A DNA stretch of 64,000 bases from an uncultured Gammaproteobacteria bacterium (lineage in GTDB: Bacteria; Patescibacteriota; Microgenomatia; Levybacterales; GWA1-39-11). Under the pieces are notes generated by a model. It saw only the letters and a program-made list of their open reading frames with translations, did not search any database and was not told the origin of the DNA. A program made the position numbers and the translations under genes. Shown in pieces: positions 54,610 through 59,735 of the stretch (position 1 is the first letter of the stretch; the number at the start of each line of letters is the position of its first letter). The stretch is from contig CAYRKM010000001.1 in assembly GCA_964425075.1 (NCBI GenBank), forward strand, positions 523,060 to 587,059. Direction: 5' to 3'.

Positions 54610-55092
54610 ATGGAAGAACAACAAGCTTCAAATAACAACTTAATCCACGATATGAGTGGGTCTAAGAAAAGAGTTTCTACAGGTGCTTCCTCAGCTGGCA
54701 AATCCTTACTTGTGGTTATAGTTATTATGGTAATTTTAGGTCTTGGAACAGGATATATTGCCGCAAATGTTGCAGGTGGTGCCAAAAAAGGTCCAACTTC
54801 AATTGGGGAGGACTTGAGCAGTGGAGAAATTAAAAAAGGAGCAACTGTAGGAGTTGATGATCCGAAAGAATTTCCCGACACAGCAGAAGGAGACCTAAAG
54901 GAAGGTGGAATTGATGGAGAGGGAGAATATCATCTTGAACGACCCGGAGGAGAATCTCAAAATGTTTATCTAACGTCATCAATAGTTGACCTTTCTCAGT
55001 TTGTAGGTAAAAAGGTAAGAGTGCAGGGGGCAACATTTTCTGCTGAAAAAGCTGGGTGGTTAATGGACGTGGGCAAACTTGAAGTGCTCTAG
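54610..55092 (+). CDS. Hypothetical membrane-anchored protein upstream of ftsE
   Basis: 160 aa. TM SLLVVIVIMVILGLGTGYIAANVAG. Gly/Glu-rich ectodomain. Confidence 0.4.
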   Translation: MEEQQASNNNLIHDMSGSKKRVSTGASSAGKSLLVVIVIMVILGLGTGYIAANVAGGAKKGPTSIGEDLSSGEIKKGATVGVDDPKEFPDTAEGDLKEGGIDGEGEYHLERPGGESQNVYLTSSIVDLSQFVGKKVRVQGATFSAEKAGWLMDVGKLEVL

Positions 55093-55129: not shown

Positions 55130-55927
55130 ATGATAAGATTTCAGGACGTATCAAAGCAATACTATTCTAATCTTGCCCTTGATAGGGTATCTTTTGATAT
55201 AGAAAAGGGCGACTTCGTTTTCCTCGTGGGGCCTACTGGTTCTGGAAAAACCACAATCTTCCGACTCATTATTAGAGATTTACTTCCAACTGAGGGCGTT
55301 ATAACAATTGGAGAAATTGATGTAGCGAAATTACCTCAAAACAAAGTTAGGCAATTAAGGCGAAATGTCGGCGTAGTATTTCAAGACCTAAAGCTCTTAA
55401 ATGATAGAACTGTTGGAGAAAACGTAATGCTTCCGCTTCAATTTTCTGGAGTATCAGAGAAAGATGCAAAGGAAAAAGCAAGAGAAGTACTCATCAACGT
55501 GGGTCTTGAAGAAGCATTTGATAAATTTCCAATGCAGCTTTCGGGTGGTGAGCGTCAAAGAGTAGCTATAGCCCGTGCTTTAGTGTTTGACCCTGAAGTG
55601 ATAATTGCTGACGAGCCTACAGGAAATCTTGATATGCAAACATCCCTTCAAATCCTTGACCTTCTTGATAGTATTAACAAAAAAGGGACAACTATATTTA
55701 TGGCAACTCATAATGATAGGATTATTGATTCTTCAAAAAAGAGAATACTTGTGGTCGAAAAGGGTAGGATAAAGGAAGATCGGAAAAAAGCTCATGATGC
55801 AAAAAAACATGATGAAGAGATAAAGCACGAGGCAAAACCTAAAGAGGAAAAGTTAGACGAGAAACACCACGAGAATAATGAAGAGACTGAAAAAAAGATA
55901 AAGCTTGAAAGTCTGGCATCAAAATAA
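55130..55927 (+). CDS. ftsE: Cell-division ABC ATPase FtsE with a ~45-aa Lys/Glu/His-rich C-terminal extension
   Basis: 265 aa. Walker A GPTGSGKTT, LSGGERQRVAIARAL signature, Walker B IIADEPT. Confidence 0.85.
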   Translation: MIRFQDVSKQYYSNLALDRVSFDIEKGDFVFLVGPTGSGKTTIFRLIIRDLLPTEGVITIGEIDVAKLPQNKVRQLRRNVGVVFQDLKLLNDRTVGENVMLPLQFSGVSEKDAKEKAREVLINVGLEEAFDKFPMQLSGGERQRVAIARALVFDPEVIIADEPTGNLDMQTSLQILDLLDSINKKGTTIFMATHNDRIIDSSKKRILVVEKGRIKEDRKKAHDAKKHDEEIKHEAKPKEEKLDEKHHENNEETEKKIKLESLASK

Positions 55928-56046: not shown

Positions 56047-56913
56047 ATGCACATACAAACAGTCGCAAAATATATAAGACGCTCACCTTACCAGTCAATT
56101 GCTGCATCGTTAATAATGTCTTTGACCTTTTTAACAATTTCTGTTTTTTCAATTTTGACAATTATTTCTATTCGTGTAATTGATTATTTTGAATCACGTC
56201 CTCAGCTTTCTGTTTTTTTTGCAGATACTGCTGAAAGGAGCGATATCGAAGCTGTACGTCAACAACTTGAGGCAACTGGAAAAACTGAGAGTATCAAATT
56301 TGTGTCAAAAGAAGAGGCGTTAGCAATTTACAAAGAGCAAAACAAAGAAGACCCCTTGCTTTTGGATTTGGTAACTGCTGATATATTACCAGCCTCACTT
56401 GATGTACAAGCAAAAGACGCAACAGAACTATCGACTCTTGCGCAAATTGCTCGTGGCTCACAGATGGTTGATGAAGTAGTTTTTCAGAAAGACATAGTTG
56501 ATACGTTGGTTAGATTTACGAATGGACTGCGACAAATTGGAATAGTGATAATTGGTGTCTTAGTTCTTGTTTCGGTTTTTGTGATACTTACAATTATTGG
56601 TATTAAAATTACGGTAAGACGTGAAGAAATTGAAATAATGAAGCTAATTGGTGCGTCAAATTGGTTTATCAGGACGCCATTTGTCCTTGAGGGAATATTT
56701 TATGGGGCCATTGGTGCAATTATTGGCTGGAGTGTTACGTATGGAGTTTTGCATTTCTATGCAACTCCAAAGATAAATTCATTTTTTGGCAATGTGCCTG
56801 TTCTGCCAATAGAGCCTATTCTTATGCTTGAAGTAGCAGGAGTTCTTTTCCTATCTGCAATTCTTCTGGGTGCATTTTCAAGTTTCCTGGCAGTTCTTCG
56901 TTACCTAAAGTAA
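56047..56913 (+). CDS. ftsX: Cell-division permease FtsX
   Basis: 288 aa. N-terminal TM, large extracytoplasmic domain, three C-terminal TM helices. Follows ftsE. Confidence 0.85.
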   Translation: MHIQTVAKYIRRSPYQSIAASLIMSLTFLTISVFSILTIISIRVIDYFESRPQLSVFFADTAERSDIEAVRQQLEATGKTESIKFVSKEEALAIYKEQNKEDPLLLDLVTADILPASLDVQAKDATELSTLAQIARGSQMVDEVVFQKDIVDTLVRFTNGLRQIGIVIIGVLVLVSVFVILTIIGIKITVRREEIEIMKLIGASNWFIRTPFVLEGIFYGAIGAIIGWSVTYGVLHFYATPKINSFFGNVPVLPIEPILMLEVAGVLFLSAILLGAFSSFLAVLRYLK

Positions 56914-56950
56914 TTGGAAAGTATGAATTATTGGCTTTATCCATAGTATT

Positions 56951-58180
56951 ATGAATATCATGCGTCACGCTTTATTAAAAGTATTTGTGATTGTAGTTTT
57001 GTGCTTTGTTTTTGCTTTGGGTAATTCTGCTTTTAGCCAAACCGCAACTCCTACTCCTACCCCAACTCCATCAACGGAAGCAAAAGAGAACGAGCTTGAA
57101 GGAAAGATAAAAGAATTGCAAGGTAAAATCAACGAACTTCAGGGTGAGGCAAAATCATTATCATCGCAAATAAAAATAGTTGATAGTCAGGTTTCACTTA
57201 CTGAACTTAAAATTGAAGCAGCACAAGAGAAAATAAAGAATATAAAAGAAGATATTTCCATAACGAAAGATAAGATTTCTGGACTAGAAGTTGATATAGA
57301 TAAAACTACACAGGCTTTGATGGGTAGGATTTCTGCAGTATATGAGGTGGGAAGTGTTGATCCTTGGCAAGTACTTTTAACTGCTAATAATTTAGACAAT
57401 TTTTTTACGCGCTTAAAATATCTAAAAATAGTCCAGCTTTATGATAAGAAAAATGTATTTGCAGCAGAGCAGGCAAAGGTAAATTACGAAAACCAGCAGA
57501 ATATATTGGTTGAAAAACAGCAAGAAGAGGAAGCTCTCAATGATGAGCTGGAAGCCTTTAATTCACAGCTTGAGAAGGAAAAACAAGAAAAACAAAAGCT
57601 CCTTGATGTTACAAAAAATTCAGAAAAAGAATACCAGAGACAGCTTGCCGCAGCCCTACGAGAGTTACAACAAATTCAAAAAGCGGCAATTGTTTTGGCT
57701 GCAACTGAACCAAAAGATGTGACTCGGGGAGAGCCAATTGGGCTAATGGGAAGTACTGGATTTTCAAGTGGCCCTCATTTGCATTTTGGGCTTTATAATA
57801 TCTCCTCTCTTTCTTCCTACAATTATTATTCAAATCACGAAAATCCTCTCAATGCCTTAGAGCCACAGTCTGTGAATTGGATATCGGGGTGTAGTGGTGA
57901 TCCTTCTGGTCAGACCACAAGTGGAAGCGGAGGTTTTGCGTGGCCAATGTCGACAAGCAGTCTGAGGATAACCCAGAATTATGGACTTACATGTTACGCA
58001 TGGATGTATAAGGGTAACCCCCATCCAGCATTGGATATTGTAAACAATTCAAATATTGTAGTCACCGCAGCGGAAGCAGGTCATGCTTATTTTTGTAAAA
58101 ATTGTACGGGCGACGGGGCAAATGGAGTATTCATTTTTCACTCAAATGGTAAGATGACATTGTATTGGCATTTGCAGTAA
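56951..58180 (+). CDS. Secreted coiled-coil M23 (LytM-type) metallopeptidase, EnvC/PcsB-like partner of FtsEX; the M23 domain segments appear in permuted order
   Basis: 409 aa. Signal peptide, TATPTPTPTPS linker, long coiled-coil, GEPIGLMGSTGFSSGPHLHFGLY (M23 C-terminal H-x-H segment). Then FAWPM...NPHPALDIV (HxxxD) ...GDGANGVFIFHSNGKMTLYWHLQ (M23 N-terminal half) at the very C-terminus. Confidence 0.8.
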   Translation: MNIMRHALLKVFVIVVLCFVFALGNSAFSQTATPTPTPTPSTEAKENELEGKIKELQGKINELQGEAKSLSSQIKIVDSQVSLTELKIEAAQEKIKNIKEDISITKDKISGLEVDIDKTTQALMGRISAVYEVGSVDPWQVLLTANNLDNFFTRLKYLKIVQLYDKKNVFAAEQAKVNYENQQNILVEKQQEEEALNDELEAFNSQLEKEKQEKQKLLDVTKNSEKEYQRQLAAALRELQQIQKAAIVLAATEPKDVTRGEPIGLMGSTGFSSGPHLHFGLYNISSLSSYNYYSNHENPLNALEPQSVNWISGCSGDPSGQTTSGSGGFAWPMSTSSLRITQNYGLTCYAWMYKGNPHPALDIVNNSNIVVTAAEAGHAYFCKNCTGDGANGVFIFHSNGKMTLYWHLQ

Positions 58181-58466
58181 AAAATTCCCCAATAATATCT
58201 CATAGTTTGATATCTCTTTCGTATTTTAGTATAATTCCACTTTGCAATTAGAATAAATTCAAGCACAAATGCTGCTTGGTGGAGTTCTTATTGCATCATG
58301 ATGTACCGTATGGTACGTCAGCACTTTGAAATATTGCGGAGATTCATGAAAAAAAACACAGTAGGTGCCGCTTTGAATATTAAACTTAGTATTTGAAGTG
58401 GCATCTATTGTAGGGTGAGTTGGGGCAGACGTCTCGACCACCTTGATTTCCTGGGAGGAAAAGCAC

Positions 58467-58790
58467 ATGTCAGCATCAAATAGGGAGCCATCGATTCGGT
58501 CGTTCCGCGACCTGCTGGTTTCGAGCTGGACAGAGGACAAGTTCGCGTTCGTGATCTACGTGATCTTCTTCTTGGGTCCCGTGGTCACCTTCGCCGGGTC
58601 TCTGGCCTGGTCATGGGTCGGGTATGTGGCGATCCTATGGCTACTAGGTGTAGTCTGGATTTGTGCCACTGCAGTTTACATAGCGCTCGGAGATAACGAG
58701 GAACAAGTCAACCGCAAGTCAGGGGTAAGTTGGTTGCAGGTCGGGTTTGTTGCGATCATCCTGATCGCGATGCTCTACGCCATCAAGTAG
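58467..58790 (+). CDS. Island ORF 1: small 3-TM membrane protein
   Basis: The ORF-track start at 58443 is TTG. ATG at 58467 is preceded by GGGAGGA. Three hydrophobic helices. GC-rich codon usage. Confidence 0.4.
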   Translation: MSASNREPSIRSFRDLLVSSWTEDKFAFVIYVIFFLGPVVTFAGSLAWSWVGYVAILWLLGVVWICATAVYIALGDNEEQVNRKSGVSWLQVGFVAIILIAMLYAIK

Positions 58791-58881
58791 AGTTCCGGGC
58801 AACCGGAACTTGCCAATCAACCCAGTTCGTGGGTCAAGTCTGACTTGACTCACCATTCGCCGAAAGTCAGAAGGGAGCGCC

Positions 58882-59286
58882 ATGTCTGCGCTTGTTGGTT
58901 TCATTCTTCCCTTGTGGGTCGTGCTGAGCATGCTCGGCACGACGCTCGGACTTACACCCGAGCAGACACAGGACAAGAACGTACACATCTCATCTGCCGA
59001 GGGGAAGCCTTACACAGGTTTTTCCTGCGACTGGGAGCTCTTCCCTGACGGCGGCGCGGGCTGGTTTGACGACCAGTGCGGCGGATTGCCGCCTCGGACC
59101 GTCGTGATCTACTGGCGCAACGTTGACCCGGCCGTCTACGGGGATGACTACATCCGCTACGTGCTTCGCCACGAGGTGGAGCACCTGCTTCGCGGACGCG
59201 ACGGTCCATCTGGGGACCTCAACAACGAAACTGCGGCGAAAGCTGCAGGCTGCGCTGCATCACCAGGCTGGTGGTGCGATTGGTGA
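58882..59286 (+). CDS. Island ORF 2: small secreted/anchored protein with an HExxH motif (putative minimal zinc-metallopeptidase-like)
   Basis: 134 aa. N-terminal hydrophobic segment LVGFILPLWVVLSMLGTTLG. YIRYVLRHEVEHLLRG contains H-E-x-x-H. Five Cys. Preceded by a GAAGGGAG SD and a 17-bp palindrome GTCAAGTCTGACTTGAC. Confidence 0.45.
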   Translation: MSALVGFILPLWVVLSMLGTTLGLTPEQTQDKNVHISSAEGKPYTGFSCDWELFPDGGAGWFDDQCGGLPPRTVVIYWRNVDPAVYGDDYIRYVLRHEVEHLLRGRDGPSGDLNNETAAKAAGCAASPGWWCDW

Positions 59287-59353
59287 ACAAACAAGCCAGT
59301 GAGTTGGGGTAGGCGCCCCGATCACCATTCAGCTAGGACTAAGGAGGAACGAG

Positions 59354-59590
59354 ATGGTCTTAACCGAAATGGGTGGAGGCTTTGATGAAAGGCCAAGGAC
59401 GGAGCATGACTCTGATGACGGCGCATCAAGCGACGAGCAGATTCGCGGAGTGGTGATCTACTCCCGAAGCAAGAGGACGTTCATCTTTCGGTCGTCAGGC
59501 CAGCCTGACATCGAAGGACGACGCGGCATCTGGTTCAATGATGATGGTGTGGGGAGGTTCCCCAACGACTTCCCGACCCGTCGATGGTAG
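59354..59590 (+). CDS. Island ORF 3: small hypothetical protein (78 aa)
   Basis: Perfect AAGGAGG SD 6 nt upstream. Acidic and Gly-rich. No homology recognised. Confidence 0.35.
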   Translation: MVLTEMGGGFDERPRTEHDSDDGASSDEQIRGVVIYSRSKRTFIFRSSGQPDIEGRRGIWFNDDGVGRFPNDFPTRRW

Positions 59591-59629
59591 ACTGATCTCC
59601 GCTCCCCGCTCGCGCGGGGCAAAGTGCAT

Positions 59630-59674
59630 GGGGCCTCCTACGCGTTACAACGCTACGGAGGCCCTCGTGCTTTT
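59630..59674 (+). terminator. GC-rich stem-loop (GGGCCTCC...GGAGGCCC) followed by a T-run at the right edge of the island
   Basis: 8-bp perfect stem (59631-59638 / 59657-59664) with a nested CGCGTT/AACGC sub-stem, then TCGTGCTTTT. Confidence 0.4.
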
Positions 59675-59735
59675 AATGACGATATAGTTTGACTTCTTGA
59701 AAATCTCCAGTATCTTTAGTTTAATTATCTAACTT

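Follow-up and report, generated by a model that had tools for sequence, protein, structure and literature searches.

A putative FtsEX-partner peptidase of Microgenomates and WWE3 carries a circularly permuted M23 domain

Introduction

Few cell-wall enzymes and regulators have been studied as much as those with M23/LytM domains, including lysostaphin, LytM, EnvC, NlpD and ShyA, and the canonical linear order of motifs in these domains is HxxxD, then Y.HL, then HxH. The window analysed here (the whole stretch of 64,000 nucleotides) holds a gene behind ftsE and ftsX for which a preliminary description, made from the letters alone, had proposed the two halves of an M23 domain in the opposite order. 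This raises the question of whether the swap is a real variant or a scrambled gene, whether its two parts could form one working active site, and whether the product would act under FtsEX. To our knowledge, cell division is almost unstudied in Microgenomates and WWE3, which have not yet been grown alone.

Results

Gene, operon and protein layout

The operon and the parts of the encoded protein are laid out as follows, in window coordinates.

55130..55927, + strand: ftsE (ABC ATPase), opening the ftsE-ftsX-peptidase unit; Pfam ABC_tran, E 2.3e-35
56047..56913, + strand: ftsX (permease with extracellular domain); Pfam FtsX_ECD, E 1.8e-17 (aa 53-144), and FtsX, E 3.6e-15
56951..58180, + strand: permuted-M23 coiled-coil peptidase gene, an open reading frame of 409 aa plus stop
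56951..57073, + strand: hydrophobic signal/anchor helix (aa 2-24) and Pro/Thr-rich spacer (aa ~30-41), from the sequence MNIMRHALLKVFVIVVLCFVFALGNSAFSQTATPTPTPTPS
57074..57694, + strand: coiled-coil hairpin (AF2), helices aa 42-133 and 148-248 linked by a short helix at 138-144
57599..57697, + strand: Ala-rich end of the second coiled-coil helix, aa 217-249, TKNSEKEYQRQLAAALRELQQIQKAA, delimited by conservation
57707..57859, + strand: C-terminal-type M23 segment, placed first, aa 253-303 (Pfam, 3slu_A and ShyA matches)
57860..57934, + strand: connector, aa 304-328, running from the canonical C-terminal end to the N-terminal one (AF2 strands)
57935..58177, + strand: N-terminal-type M23 segment, placed last, aa 329-409 (3slu_A and ShyA matches)

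The peptidase reading frame, the last gene of the ftsE-ftsX operon, falls exactly where the preliminary description had put it, and the order of its motifs is also as described there. These motifs lie at aa 257-282 (VTRGEPIGLMGSTGFSSGPHLHFGLY), 329-345, 356-364 and 385-409. The C-terminal-type segment, whose HxH-leading strand is joined to the last coiled-coil helix by ~6 residues, contains the V..G..IG..G.TG.S.GPHLHF strands (H276 at 57776-57778, H278 at 57782-57784) and then the '..NP..L' end of the canonical domain. The N-terminal-type segment contains WP..., Y353, H358xxxD362 (58022-58036), CxxC at 382-385, GDGxNG, H397 and the final strand MTLYWH407LQ (H407 at 58169-58171). AF2 predicted a helix at aa 2-24 and disorder at aa 26-41 (pLDDT <50), and the N-terminal hydrophobic helix suggests that the peptidase is exported. 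A promoter and terminator scan of the operon gave no informative signal beyond a strong promoter-like site directly 3' of the peptidase gene, and a compositionally foreign island (GC 0.52-0.68) starts ~220 bp past the stop codon.

The M23 halves stand in swapped order

Within the 409-aa protein a single HxH (H276/H278) precedes a single HxxxD (H358/D362), and the chain terminates 2 residues past the third catalytic His, H407, so that the canonical linear order is absent. It had been claimed that nothing upstream could supply a first HxxxD and that the protein stops where an M23 domain would normally continue, and both points hold, as the sole His before residue 276 is H6 in the signal peptide and the only HxxxD is that at 358-362. 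A read-through or frameshift extension that would give a normal C-terminal half was also ruled out, since no M23-like remnant was present 3' of the stop codon in any frame. The gap described between the two segments does exist, but its length of ~60 residues was off, with 47 residues from the HLHF strand to FAWP and 76 to HxxxD.

Pfam PF01551 matched the peptidase with 47.9 bits (E 1.5e-12; curated gathering cut-off 28.7 bits) in two stretches of reversed order, as anticipated, the first of which, aa 253-283, corresponds to profile positions 59-89 of 96. Using phmmer against the PDB chain 3slu_A, aa 317-408 paired with chain residues 206-295 and aa 256-280 with residues 304-328, and the order is therefore reversed. 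A family profile, which makes either M23 piece significant alone, matched 28 M23 PDB chains (E down to 6e-13); against ShyA (6ue4_A), profile positions 94-171 corresponded to residues 238-315 (i-E 5.5e-4) and positions 11-41 to residues 320-350 (i-E 3.8e-4), and matches to TagE were reversed as well. Because the two pieces abut in canonical domains (295/304 in 3slu_A, 315/320 in ShyA), these reversed matches to solved M23 enzymes, together with the split Pfam stretches, bear out a circular permutation, in which the halves of one contiguous domain are swapped, a connector bridges the old termini and a former loop supplies the new ones.

The connector is 25 aa long here and is predicted to form a beta-hairpin (AF2 strands 306-310 and 320-324, pLDDT >90) with conserved W310 and C314, both invariant among close homologues, before a Gly/Ser-rich loop. 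Across the family the spacing from HxH to HxxxD ranges from 46 to 94 aa, the lower end of which means that the connector can nearly vanish, and in the member P0197 it is ~4 residues (NPRNYLGGALSWPLP), so the canonical M23 termini must sit close together.

The swap is conserved across genomes

A homologue search returned 627 matches, and the 120 listed, from NCBI, JGI, ENA and Logan, cover 87-100% of the query at ~390-450 aa. All 90 of the 90 homologues aligned have the same permuted order and end in LYWH[LM][QR]. The swapped domain is encoded colinearly in 117 GTDB species representatives, including the complete WWE3 genome CP006914, in a scan whose patterns catch close relatives only and on which the phylogenetic limits of the family rest.

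These counts bear on whether a misassembly or rearrangement scrambled a truly canonical M23 gene, a concern raised by the metagenome-type genome from which the window comes and by the foreign island ~220 bp after the stop codon, which could hint at a chimeric join. However, order and C-terminus are identical in the 90 aligned homologues, in the 117 species-representative genomes (a complete chromosome among them) and in 75 separate clusters at 50% identity. An independent assembly matches the window at 100% identity over 2261 bp, through the gene and into the adjoining island, the island also occurs in a related genome (L082), and the downstream sequence holds no M23 remnant. We therefore give an artefact of this kind next to no credence. 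With the swap kept in >100 candidate-phyla-radiation species, the M23 domain with its halves in swapped order is a real variant of a well-known enzyme and no assembly error.

A large family with probably a single origin

We classed the best 150 50%-identity cluster representatives with separate profiles for each M23 piece, which gave 75 permuted, 55 canonical and 10 tandem M23-M23 proteins. With a single exception, the 75 permuted representatives have 0-6 residues between the end of the N piece and the C-terminus. Permuted members have diverged from one another as much as canonical ones have (0.61 against 0.58), and when the domains were re-ordered and compared in a neighbour-joining tree, 73 of 74 permuted units fell into one pure clade. 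Judged by these numbers, the permuted-M23 family is both large and old. Two members, P0161 (1118 aa) and P0177 (307 aa), carry the permuted domain at the end of unrelated architectures, and the domain also occurs without the coiled coil. The only informative names among the distant clusters were a Woesebacteria entry (UniRef A0A1F7XA07) and one 'Patescibacteria group' entry.

Most likely, the permuted form arose once, from a canonical coiled-coil M23 FtsEX partner in a Microgenomates/WWE3 ancestor within the Patescibacteria. Tandem M23-M23 proteins would be the starting point for the usual duplication-then-truncation route to permutation. Among the classified representatives we found no convincing intermediate with an FtsEX-type coiled coil; as candidates for permuted or C-N-C forms, P0175 and P0217 were rejected because their sequences read N-C-N-C, and P0201 because it is a truncated fragment of the tandem type. 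Some tandem M23-M23 proteins carry BlaR1-like or other N-terminal regions. As canonical, tandem and permuted forms are all in databases, duplication and trimming can be tested on a real family.

Cyanophage internal virion proteins may share the C-then-N arrangement. A tblastn search of phage genomes with the permuted domain returned only the GxTGxSTGPHLH segment, in three records, and an hhalign comparison between the family and the C-terminus of P60 gp33 fell short of significance (E 0.037), so the phage link stays a lead.

Predicted structure and a probable single zinc site

A domain-only AF2 model, built from an alignment of 34 homologue fragments, reached pLDDT 88.8 and pTM 0.87 and has the canonical M23 strands in re-ordered sequence; in the full-length AF2 model the same domain has pLDDT 86-98. 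Foldseek of the AlphaFold domain model against the PDB gave no canonical M23 match. From the two models we infer that the two segments reconstitute one M23 zinc site in three dimensions.

The site could instead be built across two chains by a domain swap, for example between copies paired by FtsX dimers, since beta-domains that are permuted or split can swap, FtsX is dimeric and the PcsB crystals contained an inhibited dimer (PMC11627006). We hold this to be very improbable, given that the AF2 monomer is confident for both pieces with a structured connector, that members with a ~4-residue connector retain all motifs, that EnvC binds FtsX 1:2 as a monomer (PMC7668044) and that the domain also terminates the unrelated architectures of P0161 (1118 aa) and P0177 (307 aa).

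Catalytic residues are retained

All zinc-ligand motifs claimed for the protein are present (H358-P-A-L-D362 and H276-L-H278) and, like H407, near-invariant among 140 permuted sequences, with H276 kept in 139, H278 in 140, H358 in 139, D362 in 140, H407 in 138 and Y353 in 133 of the 140. Under the motif definition and residue roles reviewed in PMC9662197, HxxxD provides two zinc ligands. H276-L-H278 fits an HxH whose second His is a zinc ligand and whose first serves water activation, Y353, 5 residues before H358, takes the place of the oxyanion Tyr (LytM Y204), and H407 in the Y.HL strand that of the additional catalytic His (LytM H260). The permutation puts H407 129 residues past HxH, whereas the usual position is ~30 before it.

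The loss of zinc and catalytic residues seen in degenerate LytM factors of the EnvC/NlpD type is absent here, and with these residues all present and near-invariant the protein was not filed as an EnvC-type activator. We rejected an EnvC-like inactive factor on the retention in 138-140 of 140 sequences, from which the permuted protein is probably an active endopeptidase, unlike EnvC.

It might alternatively be a decayed leftover of a tandem M23-M23 protein without one working site, serving as an EnvC-like non-catalytic regulator or through pieces that act separately. Such tandem proteins do exist (10 of the best 150 representatives), EnvC, the best-known FtsEX partner of similar fold, is non-catalytic (PMC7668044), and Foldseek failed to recognise an M23 domain in the AlphaFold model. 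Against this, the five catalytic and zinc residues kept in 138-140 of 140 sequences, with the oxyanion Tyr in 133, are hard to explain unless they act jointly, whereas EnvC-type factors have lost such residues; AF2 also builds one compact domain (pTM 0.87), and the chain always ends exactly past the third-His strand, a fixed end that indicates constraint and not decay. Decay of this kind thus has little probability in our judgement.

Coiled coil and gene order point to FtsEX

Among 80 related loci, with protein identities of 35-66%, the order ftsE-ftsX-peptidase recurs in 66, ftsX lies directly 5' of the peptidase gene in 70, and ~10% of loci have no ftsEX beside it. Together with the Pfam matches of ftsE and ftsX upstream and the EnvC and PcsB structural matches, this upholds the earlier assignment to the EnvC/PcsB position of an ftsEX operon. 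AF2 helices 42-133 and 148-248 form the coiled-coil hairpin of ~200 residues expected before the effector domain. Top Foldseek PDB matches of the full-length model were FtsEX-EnvC (8tzl_E), EnvC (6tpi_A), RipC (8idc_E), RipA (6ewy) and PcsB (4cgk), and NCBIfam EnvC matched partially (aa 48-248, E 7e-7). A coiled-coil profile aligned colinearly, from one end to the other, with 38 of 42 canonical coiled-coil M23 proteins (E down to 2e-22), so the permuted and canonical proteins have homologous coiled-coil modules.

The end of the coiled coil is the most constrained, as block 221-240 has a mean conservation of 0.83 versus 0.47-0.71 in the remaining coiled coil, and positions L218, T221, E225, Y228, E238, A245 and L249 are invariant within aa 217-249. 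This Ala-rich helix is a candidate regulatory element resembling the 'restraining arm' of the EnvC model, an arrangement predicted to extend to PcsB, CwlO and RipC (PMC7668044, PMC11627006).

A genuine permuted M23 hydrolase might nonetheless work without FtsEX control, its neighbourhood being coincidental or merely co-transcriptional, and the ~10% of loci without adjoining ftsEX and the occurrence of the permuted domain without a coiled coil would fit this. But the gene order persists in 66 of 80 loci at identities of 35-66%, the coiled coil is homologous with the one in canonical coiled-coil M23 proteins, and structurally it comes closest to FtsEX-bound EnvC and RipC, which makes independence from FtsEX improbable.

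Discussion

We consider it likely that the gene encodes an exported endopeptidase in which an FtsX-docking coiled coil of the EnvC/PcsB type carries a catalytically intact, circularly permuted M23 domain. The antiparallel coiled coil would dock on the FtsX extracellular domains. The chain would enter the M23 domain at the strand that normally follows 'Y.HL', pass through the HxH strand to the normal C-terminus, cross the ~25-residue connector to the normal N-terminus and Tyr/HxxxD, and stop 2 residues past the third catalytic His. One ordinary M23 site would result, with zinc on H358, D362 and H278, water activated by H276 and H407, and Y353 as the oxyanion residue.

The working mode would presumably be like that of PcsB, RipC or CwlO in single-membrane bacteria, in that FtsE binds ATP, FtsX moves and the movement is transmitted along the coiled coil. 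An autoinhibitory contact, most likely made by the Ala-rich helix aa 217-249 just before the domain, would then be released, and the freed peptidase would cut septal peptidoglycan cross-links at division.

The preliminary description had suggested that the topology change may relate to FtsEX-controlled activation, and it is plausible that it serves this. A stronger form, which strikes us as rather unlikely, is that the permutation is non-neutral: as both chain ends have moved to the active-site region, the catalytic fold itself could contain a mechanical switch whose active-site strands respond directly when FtsEX moves the coiled coil, in contrast to EnvC, where a separate helix is removed from the groove. 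If true, this would be a new mode of coupling FtsEX to a hydrolase and would account for the replacement of the canonical form by the permuted one throughout a Patescibacteria branch.

A full-text literature search that included the 2022 family review found no description of a permuted M23 domain, which agrees with the earlier remark that this is no recognised subfamily, and the domain is apparently undescribed so far. The permuted M23 protein would be the standard FtsEX partner across Microgenomates and WWE3 and no single-genome curiosity. For annotation, PF01551-type models catch fragments only, in weak, split matches, so that domain boundaries are misdrawn and the proteins carry the labels 'hypothetical' or generic M23. 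For mechanism, the family offers a natural experiment on which attachment of coiled coil to catalytic domain FtsEX control needs, and likewise on where the M23 fold tolerates new termini, knowledge of use in engineering lysostaphin-type enzybiotics.

Among known systems, EnvC of E. coli and V. cholerae (6TPI, 8TZL) is the best structural match of the full-length model and shares the ftsEX-adjacent gene, the N-terminal signal, a length of ~400 aa, the long antiparallel coiled-coil hairpin with a short turn helix, and a conserved helix before a C-terminal M23-fold domain. Its LytM domain, however, is canonical in order and has lost the catalytic residues, and EnvC only activates the amidases AmiA and AmiB (PMC7668044), whereas the protein described here is permuted and keeps every catalytic residue, and is therefore expected to cut peptidoglycan itself.

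PcsB, RipC and CwlO are FtsEX-controlled hydrolases of bacteria without an outer membrane. PcsB (S. pneumoniae, 4CGK), RipC (M. tuberculosis, 8IDC) and CwlO (B. subtilis) follow the plan proposed for our protein, an FtsX-binding coiled coil and a C-terminal hydrolase, but their catalytic domains are CHAP or NlpC/P60 cysteine peptidases and not an M23 metallopeptidase. In that type, an active hydrolase is autoinhibited until FtsE binds ATP (PMC11627006).

Canonical coiled-coil M23 proteins (such as P0266, P0239 and P0223) have a homologous coiled coil (E down to 2e-22), and they and canonical M23B enzymes (LytM, lysostaphin, ShyA 6UE4, NMB0315 3SLU and TagE 5J1L) have the motifs Y...HxxxD, G.GN.V.I.H..G..T.Y.HL and G..IG..G.TG.STGPHLHF in common with our protein. 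Both run from N-piece to C-piece, whereas here C-piece, connector and N-piece follow one another and the chain ends at the Y.HL strand. The tandem M23-M23 proteins (P0159, P0163, P0175, P0217 and others) contain a C-piece/N-piece junction internally, across which the permuted profile therefore matches, but their first and last halves are complete, they lack an FtsEX-type coiled coil and they fall outside the permuted clade. Lastly, the permuted NlpC/P60 families (YaeF/poxvirus G6R and LRAT-like; Anantharaman and Aravind 2003, as cited in PMC6403190) have a papain-like cysteine peptidase fold and chemistry that differ from M23, yet, so far as that citation describes them, they are a precedent within a peptidoglycan-hydrolase superfamily for whole subfamilies with catalytic residues swapped in sequence.

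Permuted order of the M23 domain in an ftsE-ftsX-peptidase unit

The peptidase ORF spans 56951-58180 exactly, encodes 409 aa and lies third in a tight same-strand unit with intergenic gaps of 119 and 37 nt:

55130-55927, + strand: ftsE, first gene of the unit (Pfam ABC_tran, E 2.3e-35)
56047-56913, + strand: ftsX, second gene (FtsX_ECD, E 1.8e-17; FtsX, E 3.6e-15)
56951-58180, + strand: permuted M23 peptidase gene, third gene of the unit

These Pfam matches and the shared strand agree with the EnvC/PcsB position assigned to the peptidase in the preliminary description, and the motif strings quoted there were all found (aa 257-282, 329-345, 356-364 and 385-409). The protein has only one HxH (H276/H278) and only one HxxxD (H358/D362); N-terminal to residue 276 the sole histidine is H6 of the signal peptide, so that, as had been claimed, no first HxxxD precedes the PHLHF segment. 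A search of all frames 3' of the stop codon revealed nothing resembling a missing M23 half.

Profile and structure-database comparisons revealed the two halves of an M23 domain in reversed order. Pfam PF01551 scored 47.9 bits (E 1.5e-12; gathering score 28.7), split over two stretches as the preliminary description had anticipated, with the protein's first stretch (aa 253-283) matching the late profile positions 59-89 of 96, and other permuted family members showed an equal split. Against the Neisseria M23 enzyme 3slu_A, aa 317-408 aligned to chain residues 206-295 and aa 256-280 to residues 304-328, two pieces that are neighbours in a normal M23 domain and whose order is swapped in the peptidase. 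A profile of 80 family members matched 28 M23 chains in the PDB (E down to 6e-13), and in ShyA (6ue4_A) each piece was significant by itself: the canonical N-terminal half (N-piece; profile 94-171 to residues 238-315, i-E 5.5e-4) and the canonical C-terminal half (C-piece; profile 11-41 to residues 320-350, i-E 3.8e-4). The reversed matches to 3slu_A and ShyA, together with the split PF01551 matches, establish that the LytM domain is circularly permuted. Permutation has moved the chain break to the short loop that separates the 'Y.HL' and 'V..G..IG' strands, and the old M23 termini are bridged by aa 304-328, the connector. By motifs and score the peptidase is an M23 protein, whereas its order is not the canonical one.

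Two features flank the unit. Immediately 5' of ftsE, the same strand encodes a membrane-anchored protein of 160 aa that Pfam does not match (54610-55092); the related contigs L082 and L083 carry a 163-aa gene at the equal position before ftsE with 77% nucleotide identity, and the gene could be part of the same transcription unit. Just past the peptidase stop lies a near-consensus sigma-70-like promoter (58207-58235; TTGATA, 17 nt spacer, TATAAT; 11/12 matches), which fits an end of the ftsEX-peptidase unit at this point.

Exclusion of a rearrangement artefact, and local assembly

A misassembly or local rearrangement could in principle produce such an order. Our homologue search covered 5.8 billion proteins and gave 627 matches, of which the 120 listed were ~390-450 aa long with 50-88% identity over 87-100% of the query; their sources were NCBI, JGI, ENA and Logan, and those with a name were Levybacteria or Patescibacteria. 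Aligning orthologues, as had been proposed, gave the permuted order and the equal C-terminal end LYWH[LM][QR] in 90/90 homologues. With one genome scanned per GTDB species, the 170-aa domain gave a single colinear match in 117 species, including Levybacteria, WWE3, Gottesmanbacteria, Pacebacteria and the 'Microgenomates group', with the complete WWE3 genome CP006914 among them, and an independent Logan assembly was 100% identical to window positions 56570-58830. The aligned homologues, the colinear domains and the identical assembly exclude an artefact.

In one MAG copy (L055:4001-4541), the homologue matches the query in one segment only to residue 303 and the domain match spans 31 extra nt, which suggests an insertion or frameshift. 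Many MAG records with the Patescibacteria-type operon (L002-L004, L006, L008, L010-L012, L015, L017, L029, L031 and others; TPA 'binchicken'/co-assembly sets) give the organism as an 'uncultured Gammaproteobacteria', 'Pseudomonadales' or 'Candidatus Saccharibacteria' bacterium, names that look like placeholders or mislabels.

A 1.3-kb high-GC island (58,400-59,680; GC 0.52-0.68 versus ~0.36 over the rest of the window) starts sharply ~220 bp past the peptidase gene, contains a 28-nt direct repeat (58415 and 59299, 82% identity) and holds three ORFs:

58443-58790, + strand: membrane-like
58882-59286, + strand: 134 aa, contains HEVEH, ends GWWCDW, no Pfam match
59354-59590, + strand: third island ORF

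Because an independent identical assembly (L081) also carries the island, and the 134-aa ORF has a homologue in a related genome (L082, 6031-6435; 78.7% nucleotide identity), the island is real and not a chimera.

Family size and origin

The permuted-domain profile was searched against 1.84 billion 50%-identity representatives and the best 150 were re-scored with separate piece profiles, which revealed 75 permuted (C-piece then N-piece), 55 canonical (N-piece then C-piece), 10 tandem (N-C-N-C) and 10 fragmentary or odd cases. With a single exception, the 75 permuted proteins had an N-piece that ended 0-6 residues from the C-terminus. With the pieces re-ordered into one frame, a neighbour-joining tree without support values, of sequences picked by similarity to the permuted profile, grouped 73/74 permuted units in a single pure clade. 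Canonical sequences are no more divergent (0.58) than the members of this clade (0.61), and these two observations point to a single old origin as read from the sequences.

The spacing from HxH to HxxxD varies from 46 to 94 residues across the family. In representative P0197 only four residues separate the canonical end 'NPRNYL' from the canonical start 'SWPLP', a join that would otherwise be impossible, so the normal M23 termini must lie near each other. Since the permuted domain also occurs without the coiled coil, at the end of P0161 (1118 aa) and in P0177 (307 aa, membrane-anchored), it acts as an autonomous module. Tandem M23-M23 proteins, fairly common among the sequences nearest the permuted profile (P0159, P0163, P0164, P0170, P0175, P0186, P0206, P0217, P0228, P0233), would be a natural point of departure for a permutation that arose by duplication; in P0175 and P0217 the tandem follows BlaR1/M56-like membrane regions.

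Predicted structure and catalytic residues

A full-length AlphaFold model built on a 90-sequence alignment (mean pLDDT 81; catalytic part 86-98) starts with a hydrophobic helix, continues through a Pro/Thr spacer predicted to be disordered and two long helices (42-133 and 148-248), and ends in the beta domain; the turn between the long helices is predicted to hold a short helix, as in EnvC. Foldseek against the PDB ranked the V. cholerae FtsEX-EnvC complex (8tzl_E) first, followed by the RipA N-domain, EnvC-FtsX (6tpi_A) and FtsEX-RipC (8idc_E), with PcsB (4cgk) lower. A domain-only model (aa 240-409; pLDDT 88.8, pTM 0.87) has strands 16-18, 23-28 and 37-43 in the C-type piece and 99-103, 121-126, 131-133, 138-143, 152-157 and 163-169 in the N-type piece, which correspond one-to-one with those implied by the canonical motifs, plus an extra hairpin in the connector. 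We infer the three-dimensional fold only from these models.

LytM and lysostaphin have described zinc ligands, two water-activating histidines and an oxyanion tyrosine (PMC9662197), the counterparts of which are H278 and D362 (each kept in 140/140 permuted sequences), H276 and H358 (each 139/140), H407 (138/140) and Y353 (133/140). These residues, lost from LytM factors of the EnvC type (PMC7668044), are kept here, so we expect a working endopeptidase. The chain ends exactly two residues past H407 (58169-58180) in nearly every member, and such a strictly fixed end suggests that the free C-terminus is functionally constrained.

Four family-specific cysteines lie in the connector hairpin (C314, 57890-57892), past the first N-type strand (C348, 57992-57994) and in a CxxC before GDGxNG (C382, 58094-58096; C385, 58103-58105). 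All four occur in 86/140 permuted sequences, other subgroups having one or none, and they could either tie the connector to the core through two disulfides or make up a second metal site.

Foldseek of the permuted-domain model against viral models gave high-probability matches only to three cyanophage virion proteins (172-197 columns, E 4e-3 to 3.5e-2, TM ~0.47), which span the whole domain and include the internal virion proteins BFVD H6WFX6 and A0A510E7V3. In one of the three, Synechococcus phage P60 gp33 (1000 aa; L084:25327-25776), the C-terminus reads ...GYGSTGPHLDV...SFGVDFATPDG...RYAFVHGTVPNA-stop, with the C-then-N order of permuted M23, altered metal ligands and the chain end RYAFVHG; profile comparison of the permuted family with this C-terminus was not significant. 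The matches are consistent with a permuted M23-like topology of the model, and as a lead only, the virion protein may carry a second, phage-borne domain of this kind.

Link to FtsEX and proposed mechanism

Among 80 related loci, the order ftsE-ftsX-gene was found in 66, with protein identity down to 35-40%, and four more were truncated within ftsX or shortly before it. Seven loci with sufficient upstream sequence (~10%) carried the gene without adjoining ftsEX (L015 (3326-4510), L009, L014, L016, L017, L022, L064) and could represent relocated genes or second copies; in L015 the neighbours are a GT87 glycosyltransferase, Wzy_C-type envelope genes and an ATP synthase subunit.

The coiled-coil profile (aa 40-250) aligned end to end with 38/42 representatives of canonical coiled-coil M23 proteins (best E 2e-22; common motifs nR..a.Y..G, F..R and T...E..YQ..La), which argues that the peptidase keeps the usual scaffold of an FtsEX partner and differs only by its rearranged catalytic domain. 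Within the first 250 residues the Ala-rich end of the second helix is best conserved (mean conservation 0.83 for aa 221-240 versus 0.47-0.71 elsewhere; L218, T221, E225, Y228, E238, A245 and L249 invariant), and its position matches the EnvC restraining arm and the PcsB Ala-rich helix (PMC7668044; PMC11627006). On the reading we favour from that correspondence, ATP bound by FtsE would move the FtsX extracellular domains, the coiled coil would pass this movement on, the conserved helix would let go of the peptidase, and the freed enzyme would cleave septal cross-links. Because of the permutation, the helix is joined through ~6 residues straight to the strand leading to HxH, which, with the chain stopping just past H407, puts both chain ends beside the active site; a more direct mechanical switch is an idea, not a result, that this arrangement raises.

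Comparison with known systems

Full-text searches, with incomplete coverage (e.g. of structure classifications), returned nothing relevant on permuted M23, LytM or EnvC, the word 'permut*' is absent from a 2022 M23 review, and nothing was found on FtsEX partners in Patescibacteria. The statement that permuted M23 domains are not a recognised subfamily therefore holds for the literature searched, that review included. Among NlpC/P60 hydrolases, permuted subfamilies are already on record (PMC6403190). The permuted M23 form is robust and widespread within one major uncultivated lineage, and bears on cell-wall enzymology, FtsEX mechanism and protein evolution. Judged by its residues, the peptidase would carry the chemistry of LytM and lysostaphin; its modelled scaffold resembles that of EnvC, and it is expected to be a direct FtsEX-controlled hydrolase like PcsB, RipC and CwlO.
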